Under the pieces are notes generated by a model. It was not told the origin of the DNA and ran no database searches. It worked only from the letters and a program-made list of their open reading frames with translations. Made by a program: the position numbers and the translations under genes. Below, piece after piece: positions 1,225 through 34,685 of a stretch of DNA of 64,000 nucleotides (positions are counted from its first letter, which is position 1; each line of letters begins with the position of its first letter). This DNA is from Candidatus Bathyarchaeia archaeon (lineage in GTDB: Archaea; Thermoproteota; Bathyarchaeia; 40CM-2-53-6): positions 704,001 to 768,000 of the forward strand of contig JBEKFP010000001.1 of the NCBI GenBank assembly GCA_050013255.1. The letters run 5' to 3'.

Positions 1225-1886
1225 AAACTCGTTCACGTCAAGTGGGGCGTGTAGATGCTATAGTCCCCTTGAACGTTCTCAGAAAATCGAAAGCACGACT
1301 TTCACCCATCCTTAGGCCGGCTGAGAGAGAGCAATTAAGTGTTGCAATGTTGAAAGACGTTCTCTCCGCCTTGCGGATGGCGAAGCGGATTCATTCGGTA
1401 ACAGTTGTTAGCGCCGATAAGGGCGTGCGTAGAATCTGCAAGCGTCTCGGGGCTAGTTTTCTCTGGGAGGGGAGAAGGCGTGGCCTCAACAGGGGGGTCA
1501 AGTTAGCTGTTAGACATGCTCAGCGGAGAGGTGCTTCCTCCGTCCTTGTGATTCATTCGGATCTCCCGCTTCTCAAACCACTGGAAATTGACACGTTCCT
1601 CAAGCGGTCCGAGGGATGTTCAGTGGCGCTTACACCATCCAAAGACCGTGATGGAACTAACGCCCTGCTCATGAGTCCCCCACAGGTGATCCGCCCAGTC
1701 TTTGGCAAAGACAGCTTCCGCAAACACCTGTCGCTGGCCAGGAGGAGAAAAGCCCGCAGCAGAGTGTTGCTGTTCAATGGCATTGGTTTCGACGTTGACA
1801 CGCCAAGGGATCTCATTGAGTTGATGCGGCGGCCGTTGCGGAATGAAACCGGCCGAGTCCTACGAATGTTTCGAAAACCGACTTAG
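1221..1886 (+). CDS. cofC: 2-phospho-L-lactate/PEP guanylyltransferase (F420 biosynthesis)
   Basis: IVP..KSKARLSP, AMLKDVL, HSDLPLL, GTNALL, FGKDSFRKH and FDVDTPRDL motifs; overlaps the cofD stop. Confidence 0.92.
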   Translation: MKTRSRQVGRVDAIVPLNVLRKSKARLSPILRPAEREQLSVAMLKDVLSALRMAKRIHSVTVVSADKGVRRICKRLGASFLWEGRRRGLNRGVKLAVRHAQRRGASSVLVIHSDLPLLKPLEIDTFLKRSEGCSVALTPSKDRDGTNALLMSPPQVIRPVFGKDSFRKHLSLARRRKARSRVLLFNGIGFDVDTPRDLIELMRRPLRNETGRVLRMFRKPT

Positions 1887-1948
1887 CGGTGCACCGAAAG
1901 ATACTCAGGGCAAAACAATTTAGAGGCAAGCGGGTGAGTTTGGGTGGG

Positions 1949-3311
1949 GTGTTTGAATTAGCATCGCCTAGGGAAAGCCACGATAAAGTGCTCCAGCTTC
2001 TGGAGCAGCATACTAAGTGGTTTTCAGAATCAATTCCGCTGATTGCATCGGAGAACGTTCCCAGCCCCGCGGTTCGCGAAGCTATAGTTTCAGACTTCGG
2101 GAATCGCTACGCGGAATAGGCTTAAGCCGATCAGGCTTAGGCCTCCGTAGGGATGGGTTGGGGAACGCGTATACGCGGGCTGCGTATACATAGACCAAGT
2201 TGAGAGGCTCTGCATAGACCTAGCAAAGGACCTATTCCGGGCCGAATTCGCGGACGTTAGGCCAGTCTCTGGGGTTTGCGCAAACCTCGTGGTTTACACC
2301 ACTTTCACAAACCCCGGCGACCGCATGCTCGCTTTAGCTATACCAAACGGCGGCCACATCTCGAGTGGGCGCAAAGATTTCTCGGGAACTGCAGGCTCGG
2401 TCCACGGCTTGGAAGTAGAATACTTTCCCTTCGACCGTCATGAAATGAACATCGACGTCGACAAGGCGAAGCAGAAAATCGAGAAGATGGTCAAGGAGGA
2501 GAATAAGCCGCCCAAACTTGGGATGTTTGGTGCAAGCCTCTTCCTCTTCCCCCAACCCCTGAAGGAGCTAGCTGAGTCATTACATAATGTTGGTGCGACC
2601 GTCGCCTACGACGCGGCACATGTTGCGGGGCTCATTGCGGGAGGAATCTTCCAAGACCCACTGAGGGAAGGTGCCGACGTAGTATGCCTGAGCACCCACA
2701 AAACGCTCTTCGGCCCGCAGGGAGGGGCGGTACTCTCCTTCGAGAAATACGCGGAGCAAATCAAGAAGGCAACGTTTCCGTCAAACACGAGCAACCACCA
2801 CCTGCATCACCTAGCTGGGAAAGCGGTTGCTTTCGCGGAAATGTTAGAGTTCGGAAAACAGTACGCTAAGCAAGTTGTGGCTAATGCCAAAGCCCTGGGT
2901 CAAGCGTTGCATGAACGAGGCCTTAACCTTCTGGGCGAGCACAAGGGTTTCACTGAGTCGCATCAAATCGCAGTCGACGTATCCAAGTATGGCTTGGGGG
3001 GAGACATGGAGAGAGCACTTGAAAGCGCCAACATAATCGTCAACCGCCAACTATTACCCGGGGACATTCAAGCGGGAAGGCACTACCAAAACCCAGGCGG
3101 CATCCGCATCGGCACCTCGGAAATCACCAGGATCGGGATGAAGGAGAACCAAATGGTCGAAGTGGCTGAGCTAATCAAGAGAATCGTCATCGACAAGCAG
3201 GACCCTAAGAAAGTGAAGGCCGATGTGCTAGAGTTTAGGAAAGATTTCCAGAAGGTTCACTACTGCTTCGAGAGCGCAAAGAAAGCCTACGAATACATCA
3301 AAGTACGGTAA
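1949..3311 (+). CDS. glyA: Serine hydroxymethyltransferase split by a 34-nt intron (exons about 1949-2116 and 2151-3311)
   Basis: LIASEN..DFGNRYAE in one frame joins GWVGERVYAGC..GGHIS..YDAAH..STHKTLFGPQGG..GIRIGT in another when 2117-2150 is removed; start uncertain (TTG 1940 or GTG 1949). Confidence 0.95.
2117..2150 (+). other. Archaeal BHB-type mRNA intron in glyA
   Basis: TAGGCTTAAGCCGATCAGGCTTAGGCCTCCGTAG; 11-bp intron stem, 4-bp central helix GCGG/CCGT, 3-nt bulges AA|T and AG|G whose cut sites restore YAE-GW exactly. Confidence 0.85.
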
Positions 3312-6372: not shown

Positions 6373-7035
6373 TCATGGCATGTTCTTGGTTCTTTCCGAG
6401 TTGGGCATTCGGACCTTCAGGATTTTGAATCCTAATTGGACTGCTGGGCCTATGGCGAGGGCGGATACTAGCGTTCCGAGCCATGCGGGCCCCCCTAGCA
6501 ACCAACCGACCACGACCACGCTTATCTCGATTATTGTGCGCGCGATTCGCACGCTAGTTTTCCCGAGGCGTGACAGCGCGAGCATCAAAGTGTCCCTCGG
6601 CCCAGCCCCAGCGTTCACTCCAATGTAGATCGCGGTCGCAAATCCCATGATCAAAACGCCGAGGAGCAGGTATCCCAACTGAACGAGGACGGAACCGGGA
6701 ACAAGCGGAACGTAGGGCCTCAGGACGTCGACCCATACGCCGATGAAGATCATGTTCGCGACCGTCCCCCAACCCAACGGCTCTTTGAGGGCTACGTCGA
6801 CGAGAATTATGATGAACGCGACGCCAATGTTGGATTCGCCAAGCGTGATCGGTAAATGGTACGTTAACGCCATTTGGAGAACGTCCCAGGGGTCCAAGCC
6901 TAGGCTCGCCTGAACCATCACATCAATCGCCAACCCGAAGAGCAGAAAACCAATTTGAATAACGAAGAAGTCCCAGGCGAACCGCCTCCAACCCACCCAA
7001 CTGAACTTGAAGAACCTACTGTTCATGGTTCGCAA
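6373..7035 (-). CDS. YczE/YitT-family membrane protein
   Basis: LGLDPWDVL, GWGTVANM, GAGPRDTLM and GGPAWLGT motifs; hydrophobic. Confidence 0.85.
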   Translation of the reverse strand: MRTMNSRFFKFSWVGWRRFAWDFFVIQIGFLLFGLAIDVMVQASLGLDPWDVLQMALTYHLPITLGESNIGVAFIIILVDVALKEPLGWGTVANMIFIGVWVDVLRPYVPLVPGSVLVQLGYLLLGVLIMGFATAIYIGVNAGAGPRDTLMLALSRLGKTSVRIARTIIEISVVVVGWLLGGPAWLGTLVSALAIGPAVQLGFKILKVRMPNSERTKNMP

Positions 7036-33651: not shown

Positions 33652-34685
33652 CAGAAAACACTGTCGAATCGCAACAAAGCGTTCCGGCTAGAGGTAATGC
33701 CGCACGGTACGTCGCGTACGCAGTTTTGGCGGTAGCGATCACAGCTTTCATTATCGGATTTCTTGCCACGCCAGGCTTCTCACAAGGGTTAGGGGTCAAC
33801 GCTGTTGTAACGACCGTGACGCAAGCAACCACGGCAGTAACCACTGTGACTATTAGCACGACTCCGGCCACTACCGTAGTTTCTACGGTTAATACGCCGG
33901 TAACGACGCTAACTATTCCGGTGACCCTAGGCACCACAGTTACAACGATTATAACAGTAGTTTCTCAGCCCACTATTGTTTCCATCGTGGTTTCTCAGCC
34001 TGTTACTGTGCAGATCGTCGTATCGCAGCCCGTCACTCTGAGCACCATAATAACGGTAACCCCAGCTACCACAACTACGACTCAGCCGACCACGGTAGCA
34101 ACGACGACGACCACAACTACGCAGACAACGCCAGAGACGACTTTTACGCCAACTACAACGGCTCCGACAACTACCGTTACGCCAACCGCAACCGTGTTTA
34201 CAACAACTACGACGACACTTACAGCAACCGCGGTTCAACGCACGATCTCTGTGTCAACGAGTATGAGTGCTACGACTGTCACGGTTAGGGTAACTCAGTC
34301 TACGACTATTACTACTACCTTGCCTCGCACTGCAGTTGTCACGGTTTCAACTCAATCCGTGACAGTCCTAAGAACAGTTGCAACTCAGCAGGTGGTGTTT
34401 ACGACAACGGCCGCAACTAAACCTGTGACTGTAACCAGCACTTCAACTATGACTCAATCTGCCACTCGCACTGTGAATGTAGCCACCATAACAATTGCCA
34501 CAACTACGCAAACCCAAACACAAGTCGCAATAACCTTCACACTCACCACGGCTACTCAAACTCAAACTCAAACAGCCGCAACCGTGACCTATACGACAGT
34601 CACAAATGTCAGAACTCAAATTGTGGCTACGATCACGTACACTACCACTACTGTAACCGGAACTATCACTTACGTCACGACATAA
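33648..34685 (+). CDS. Thr-rich mucin-like surface protein (paralog)
   Basis: Shares NAARY plus TM and the VxRTIxVSTS..VSTQSVT..ATQQVVFTT core with 31281..32918. Confidence 0.8.
   Translation: MPENTVESQQSVPARGNAARYVAYAVLAVAITAFIIGFLATPGFSQGLGVNAVVTTVTQATTAVTTVTISTTPATTVVSTVNTPVTTLTIPVTLGTTVTTIITVVSQPTIVSIVVSQPVTVQIVVSQPVTLSTIITVTPATTTTTQPTTVATTTTTTTQTTPETTFTPTTTAPTTTVTPTATVFTTTTTTLTATAVQRTISVSTSMSATTVTVRVTQSTTITTTLPRTAVVTVSTQSVTVLRTVATQQVVFTTTAATKPVTVTSTSTMTQSATRTVNVATITIATTTQTQTQVAITFTLTTATQTQTQTAATVTYTTVTNVRTQIVATITYTTTTVTGTITYVTT

Follow-up and report, generated by a model that had tools for sequence, protein, structure and literature searches.

To our knowledge, no archaeal coding sequence other than cbf5 has in more than 20 years been reported to contain an intron of the bulge-helix-bulge (BHB) type, and the splicing of the cbf5 intron is said to have been shown by reverse transcription PCR and in vitro cleavage by Watanabe and co-workers in 2002 and Yoshinari and co-workers in 2006. 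Here we describe what is very probably a genuine BHB intron in the coding sequence of a second gene, glyA, which encodes serine hydroxymethyltransferase (SHMT), in an uncultured Bathyarchaeia archaeon. The gene lies on a 64-kb stretch of DNA (assembly GCA_050013255.1, contig JBEKFP010000001.1, positions 704,001 to 768,000), referred to below as the window, and the proposed intron occupies window positions 2117–2150; all coordinates are positions in the window unless a contig or locus is named. The cbf5 intron occurs in Desulfurococcales and Sulfolobales (PMC2738675). It and the glyA insert are alike in being short BHB introns within a coding sequence, in occurring in lineages with a hetero-oligomeric splicing endonuclease (EndA), in their patchy distribution, and in being missed by gene finders. 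They differ in lineage and in the nature of the host, as cbf5 encodes an RNA-modification enzyme (a pseudouridine synthase) whereas glyA encodes a metabolic enzyme dependent on pyridoxal phosphate (PLP). The two introns have no sequence relationship, and splicing has been demonstrated for cbf5 whereas for glyA it is predicted.

An experimental survey of EndA substrates published in 2020 still has cbf5 as the only coding-sequence case and adds one BHB intron in a 5′ untranslated region (UTR), that of the Haloferax volcanii HVO_1309 mRNA (Schwarz et al., 2020, PMC7714728). HVO_1309 resembles glyA in that an mRNA is the substrate of the archaeal splicing endonuclease, but its intron is situated in an untranslated leader and leaves the reading frame unbroken, and the Haloferax EndA is homodimeric.

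Non-canonical tRNA introns with relaxed BHB motifs were reportedly described by Marck and Grosjean in 2003. Relaxed motifs, of the forms hBH and HBh′, are found in the non-canonical and multiple tRNA introns of Thermoproteota (PMC6379350). The glyA insert shares with these the 4-bp helix, the 3-nt bulges, the cuts within the bulges, the relaxed outer helix, and the enzymes that would process it. Its host, however, is an mRNA, without the mature tRNA body that aids recognition, and the exon half of its motif is made of codons, so that synonymous sites are constrained. In eukaryotes, the unconventional splicing of HAC1/XBP1 mRNA by IRE1 and RtcB is stress-regulated and uses a motif of two stem-loops. 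That system likewise removes a short intron from a coding sequence by means of a protein endonuclease and a tRNA ligase and alters the reading frame; its endonuclease, however, is IRE1, acting on two stem-loops under regulation, whereas the glyA intron has a BHB motif and would be a substrate of EndA.

No paper in the literature that we searched connected SHMT or Bathyarchaeia to mRNA introns. The predicted glyA intron is thus a new host gene and a new lineage for a pre-mRNA BHB intron of the cbf5 type, with a mechanism that is already known. mRNA splicing of the EndA/RtcB type would then be no peculiarity of cbf5, having a second host in central one-carbon metabolism in an environmentally abundant lineage.

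A 34-nt insert interrupts glyA

The glyA gene is on the + strand at 1889–3311. The frame of exon 1 is open from 1889, with candidate start codons at GTG 1934, TTG 1940, and GTG 1949; taken from the first of these, exon 1 spans 1934–2116 and ends with the codons GCG GAA at 2111–2116 (the terminal Glu codon, GAA, being 2114–2116), where its translation reads ...SDFGNRYAE. This frame, which encodes ...SENVPSPAVREAIVSDFGNRYAE, meets a TAG at 2117–2119, and the conserved continuation of the protein, GWVGERVYAGCVYID..., begins at 2151 in a different frame, from which it follows that 2117–2150 is an insert. Exon 2 (2151–3311) opens GGA TGG GTT, has a translation beginning GWVGERVYAG..., and comprises 386 codons, including those for the PLP-lysine motif STHKT, followed by a TAA stop. 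The Pfam SHMT profile (PF00464) is divided between the exons with no gap, overlap, or duplication, as profile positions 4–50 match exon 1 and positions 51–399 match exon 2 (E = 2.7e-62 for exon 2). Against NCBIfam NF000586, which has a cut-off of 335 bits, exon 2 by itself reaches 397.7. The closest relative of the glyA product with a solved structure is the M. jannaschii SHMT (4uqv), and the residue with which exon 1 ends corresponds to residue 57 of the E. coli enzyme (1dfo), the conserved active-site glutamate. The joined exons are predicted to encode a full-length SHMT of ~440 residues.

The genome has a second, intact SHMT-like gene of 413 residues (locus L002:1282–2523, + strand; contig C2, ~662.5–663.7 kb), whose product is 47% identical to that of glyA. 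It carries NRYTSPERFY where glyA has NRYAEGWVGERVY and has no A-E-G motif, and its NCBIfam SHMT score (307.9 bits) is below the 335-bit cut-off. A paralog of this kind is present in most members of the window's genus. The divergent paralog probably cannot replace glyA, judging from its sequence. A first-pass annotation of the window, made by a model from the DNA letters, had proposed that a core one-carbon enzyme depends on the splicing machinery; this is slightly softened by the existence of the paralog, itself divergent and scoring under the cut-off.

The insert and its flanks form a BHB motif

A BHB motif consists of two 3-nt bulges flanking a 4-bp helix, with the cuts made inside the bulges (PMC6379350). 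In glyA the 5′ strand of the central helix is made of exon nucleotides (GCGG, 2111–2114) and its 3′ strand of intron nucleotides (CCGT, 2145–2148), giving four base pairs of which one is G-U. The bulges lie on opposite strands on either side of this helix: AA/T at 2115–2117, with the predicted 5′ splice site between 2116 and 2117, and AG/G at 2149–2151, with the predicted 3′ splice site between 2150 and 2151 (here and below a slash within a sequence marks the cut). The 5′ bulge is closed by an inner helix (h′) of 11 bp (2118–2128 paired with 2134–2144, with one G-U) capped by the loop GATCA (2129–2133). The insert with its in-frame TAG, 11-bp stem, 4-bp helix, and AAT and AGG bulges had all been described in the first-pass annotation, and direct reading of the sequence bears out every one of these elements. 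When a 76-nt piece containing the motif was folded, its energy was −33.1 kcal/mol (z = −3.5), which was equaled by 1 of 200 shuffled sequences.

An in silico cut placed two nucleotides into each bulge excises precisely 2117–2150 and joins NRYAE/GWVGER, with Pfam positions 50 and 51 becoming adjacent, as had been claimed. There are, though, three 34-nt excision registers (2114/2149, 2115/2150, and 2116/2151) that all yield A-E-G, and the exactness of the restoration is for this reason less unique than it seems, the bulge rule selecting one register of the three.

A BHB descriptor with an inner stem of at least 10 bp matched only three places on both strands of the window, and a match that coincides with a frame break is therefore unlikely to have arisen by chance, although the comparative data presented below weigh more. 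Two other BHB-like hairpins with long inner stems, at 34541–34581 and 6967–7001 (both − strand), have 16 and 12 inner pairs, respectively, many of them G-U. Both failed a filter for the joining of open reading frames (ORFs) and are probably chance matches or G/U-rich repeat structures. No Rfam family matched within window positions 1800–2500.

Conservation and covariation in relatives

An exon-2 protein search of 40 related genomes, together with a scan of one genome per species, provided ~100 orthologous loci. Inserts are found at the identical site (...RYAE / GW.GER) in 18 distinct loci, all in metagenome-assembled genomes (MAGs) of Bathyarchaeia from independent projects, including archaeon RBG_16_50_20 and MFD02248.bin.2.56. 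They are 25, 30, 31, 32, 33, 34, or 39 nt in length, mostly not multiples of three, and they start with a stop codon in the window's genus and with AAA, AAG, or AGG in other lineages. In the remaining Bathyarchaeia that were fetched, and in all Nitrososphaeria, glyA is uninterrupted, and the intronless orthologs, two from the window's genus among them, read ...GCN GAR GGN TGG..., which is the predicted spliced junction. The layout of 4-bp helix, 3-nt bulge, stem, 4-bp helix strand, and 3-nt bulge, with a cut that is in frame, fits all 18 inserts.

Covariation was assessed in an alignment (A2) of 17 of the 18 insert sequences. Standard pairing was present in 89.8% of cells versus 75.8% when columns were shuffled, and none of 500 shuffles reached the observed value. 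Changes on both sides were found in 11 of the 16 pairs, and within the inner helix 10 of 11 pairs had compensatory changes, while sliding the 3′ partners by 1–3 columns caused pairing to fall to 32–47%. The covariation check in relatives that had been suggested with the original annotation thus came out in favor of the stem. In the central helix, 95.6% of cells are paired. The strongest single example is central-helix pair 9–47, in which an exon and an intron nucleotide compensate for one another: it switches from G-C to C-G in two loci (L021 and L057), where the exon Ala codon is GCC in place of GCG and the intron has CGGT in place of CCGT.

The outer helix is represented by a single conserved pair, between exon 1 nucleotide C2110 and G2152, which is C-G in 17 of 17 sequences; a second outer pair, A-U, occurs in a few sequences only. 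Because the outer helix is limited to this one invariant C-G pair, the motif is a relaxed, HBh′-like BHB, in agreement with the weak outer stem and relaxed motif of the first-pass description.

Selection on the exons and on the codons within the motif

Among intron-bearing members of the genus, the ratio of nonsynonymous to synonymous divergence (dN/dS) for exon 1 was 0.02–0.08, at a proportion of synonymous differences (pS) of 0.43–0.69, and the values for exon 2 were indistinguishable. The equally low dN/dS of the two exons indicates that both are translated, each in its own frame.

Only in intron-bearing genes are the exon codons of the motif frozen. For Ala, GCG is used in 16 of 18 intron-bearing loci versus 10 of 83 intronless loci, and the two exceptions have GCC, each with a compensating CGGT in the intron. 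Similarly, the Tyr codon is TAC in all 18 intron-bearing loci versus 37 of 83 intronless ones. These counts include related sequences and so overstate the strength of the contrast, but its direction is clear. If the prediction is correct, glyA offers a natural system in which codons double as splice-motif nucleotides, with the freezing of synonymous sites as a measurable signature.

Splicing machinery encoded in the genome

The genome (2.46 Mb in 3 contigs) is a MAG with an estimated contamination of 8.55%. It encodes both a splicing endonuclease and a ligase of the types used in BHB splicing, having two genes of the EndA family (PF01974) and one for RtcB. The larger EndA (190 residues) retains the Y..H..K pattern, matches the catalytic half of EndA models, and scores above the TIGR00324 cut-off, and the smaller (187 residues), in which the His is absent, has matches to the N-terminal half and, weakly, to beta-subunit models. 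From these matches, the pair is predicted to be an (alpha-beta)2 arrangement. EndAs belonging to the (alpha-beta)2 or the epsilon2 type have been reported to cut relaxed BHB motifs (PMC6379350), and the same paper links an (alpha-beta)2 EndA to the splicing of cbf5 pre-mRNA (PMC6379350, citing Yoshinari, 2006). The RtcB gene (contig C1:110968–113778, − strand) matched its profile in two pieces, profile positions 1–60 and 49–426, that are ~1.4 kb apart inside one open frame of 1039 residues, a situation that resembles an in-frame insertion of the intein type.

Proposed splicing of glyA and alternative explanations

That 2117–2150 is a BHB intron is strongly supported: 18 loci share the site, the structure covaries, both exons are under selection, and the genome has genes for the enzymes. 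We infer that cleavage and ligation occur, and that they do so at the predicted bonds. In the primary transcript, exon GCGG would pair with intron CCGU to form the central helix, on which the 11-bp hairpin would stack, and the bulges AA/U and AG/G would expose the two scissile bonds. A two-subunit, alpha/beta-type EndA would cut after the second nucleotide of each bulge, following which RtcB would ligate the exons and probably circularize the 34-nt intron. The spliced product, ...GCG GAA/GGA UGG..., would be translated as ...N-R-Y-A-E-G-W-V-G-E-R..., with the junction ...TACGCGGAA/GGATGGGT..., whereas translation of unspliced mRNA would terminate at the TAG that opens the intron. An earlier suggestion that the intron acts as a regulatory switch is unsupported, as nothing that we computed speaks for it.

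Several findings count against this interpretation. The strict hBHBh′ form has an outer exon–exon helix, and in glyA this helix is lacking apart from the one conserved C-G, leaving the 3′ bulge unclosed. In the minimum free energy structure of the isolated 76-nt piece the central helix is not formed, as a competing pairing of CUACG with CGUAG takes its place, and there is also an out-of-frame BHB register, CGGA with UCCG, which has four Watson-Crick pairs and would remove 2118–2149. We rejected both the competing pairing and the out-of-frame register, as relatives preserve the in-frame register but neither of these two. Three relatives have one G·A mismatch in the central helix, and three (L027, L029, and L030) have a frameshift in exon 2. 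In L029 two nucleotides are deleted at the position corresponding to window 2750, and in L030 there is a 1-nt difference in a G-run; these frameshifts may be errors of long-read assembly or true decay of glyA. Lastly, among the data searched, there was no contig or protein of the spliced form that was more than ~90% identical to an intron-bearing gene.

The raw translation of glyA is broken, and gene callers give only truncated ORFs, as would be expected if a dead insertion had left a pseudogene or a truncated protein made from an internal start, with no RNA processing. The second SHMT-like gene and the three relatives with exon-2 frameshifts are also in keeping with such decay. We nevertheless regard it as very improbable, since in every lineage that carries the intron exon 1 is subject to strong purifying selection, with synonymous sites near saturation, and since it is the structure of the insert rather than its sequence that is conserved, with compensatory changes. 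In addition, the first in-frame start after 2151, GTG 2289, would delete a stretch of 46 residues that ranks with the most conserved in the SHMT family, and the paralog is without the A-E-G motif and under the SHMT cut-off. The near-perfect hairpin formed by the insert, in a MAG with an estimated contamination of 8.55%, could also bring to mind an assembly or sequencing artefact, or a palindromic mobile element resembling a miniature inverted-repeat transposable element that had landed in glyA. It is extremely unlikely that either is the case, given that 18 distinct sequences, produced by independent studies and assemblers, carry an insert at this site and that the genome (2.46 Mb) contains the 41-nt motif only once.

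Two further explanations accept that both exons are expressed and dispense with splicing. In translational bypassing of the T4 gene 60 type, ribosomes would leave the message at the Glu codon, pass over the hairpin, and resume at the Gly codon, and the stop directly after the last exon-1 codon in the window's genus, together with the stable hairpin that opens the gap, is suggestive of this. However, there is no landing codon to match the take-off codon GAA, as GGA is preceded by CCGUAG, and the inserts of other lineages, beginning with AAA, AAG, or AGG, have no stop at that place. The covariation that links exon GCGG to the insert's 3′ end is, moreover, accounted for by a BHB but not by hopping, and we judge bypassing to be highly unlikely. 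The same stop would suit a split gene, with each exon yielding its own polypeptide and the two assembling into SHMT, and split genes are known in some archaea. Yet no start codon is found at 2151 or close to it, where conserved residues follow immediately after the insert, inserts of 25–39 nt are too short to hold translation signals, and in several relatives exon 1 is not directly followed by a stop, all of which makes a split glyA a very poor prospect.

Searches for spliced products and public annotation

A scan of Joint Genome Institute (JGI) metagenome contigs for the exon junction, allowing both GAA/GGA and GAG/GGA, returned 23 contigs, of which 8 aligned to an intron-bearing locus at 72–77% identity and 15 did not align. 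We considered these as candidates for spliced glyA and rejected them, as all 23 appear to be distant intronless genes. No full-length (~440 residue) protein in the database was more than 93% identical to any locus, and these proteins likewise appear to derive from intronless genes. One of them, P0009, was examined as a possible cDNA product; it sits on a 5.1-kb contig with multiple genes and thus represents an intronless gene.

The contiguous exon junction is missing from 88 of the 120 closest database proteins. Most of these 88 are N-terminally truncated calls of 328–392 residues, and four (P0028, P0029, P0041, and P0049) are frame-shifted read-throughs in which exon 1 is read in the wrong frame and translation continues across the intron (...LTSETATRNRTGLITQSPY/GWVGER...). 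The first-pass annotation had expected pipelines to call the gene a pseudogene; it was right that the calls would be wrong, although in close relatives they are almost all truncated ORFs or read-throughs and not flagged pseudogenes. A systematic annotation error would thereby be exposed, and metabolic reconstructions from Bathyarchaeia MAGs may mis-score glyA.

Distribution and history of the proposed intron

In a protein tree of 65 orthologs, the intron is present in 11 of the 12 members of the clade formed by the window's genus, and beyond it in two further families of the same order as well as one unplaced long-branch MAG. This distribution requires at least 4 or 5 changes of state on the tree. 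The inserts of the different groups are similar to one another, conforming to A[G/A]GC[U/C]U...AGC[C/U]U-CCG[U/C], and because they have remained so, the simpler reading is a single ancient gain with precise losses thereafter. The sequences therefore suggest that the intron is old and has probably been precisely lost several times. An old gain and subsequent losses were likewise concluded for the cbf5 intron (PMC2738675).

Other candidate mRNA introns and neighboring genes

A first genome-wide scan for BHB motifs whose removal joins ORFs was too permissive (1176 matches); a tightened version gave 40, among which glyA and the gene for elongation factor 2 (EF-2) were convincing. The wish for such a scan of other split genes, expressed in the first-pass annotation, was therefore repaid by recovery of the EF-2 site. 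The EF-2 insert is a 28-nt BHB insert near the start of the gene (contig C2:307095–307122, − strand; UCCG AA/U ... CGGA AG/A), and its removal gives ...IANKEQIRN/MGIIAHVDHGKTT, a typical EF-2 N-terminus. A match at C1:95831–95856 was rejected because, judged by its sequence, it looks like the boundary between two adjacent glycine-cleavage genes, and the other matches that were viewed were rejected for want of a recognizable junction.

It is possible, though we think it rather doubtful, that the glyA intron belongs to a larger group of BHB introns in protein genes of this clade, the EF-2 insert being another, that mRNA splicing is routine across the lineage, and that retention of the intron is functional and not a matter of neutral persistence. 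If so, the retention of the glyA intron across families and the stop codon at its opening might couple SHMT output to splicing capacity, or serve in quality control.

Directly upstream of glyA on the + strand are two genes of F420 biosynthesis, cofD (298–1224) and cofC (1221–1886), which overlap by 4 nt, and downstream of it there is an ORF resembling short-chain dehydrogenases.
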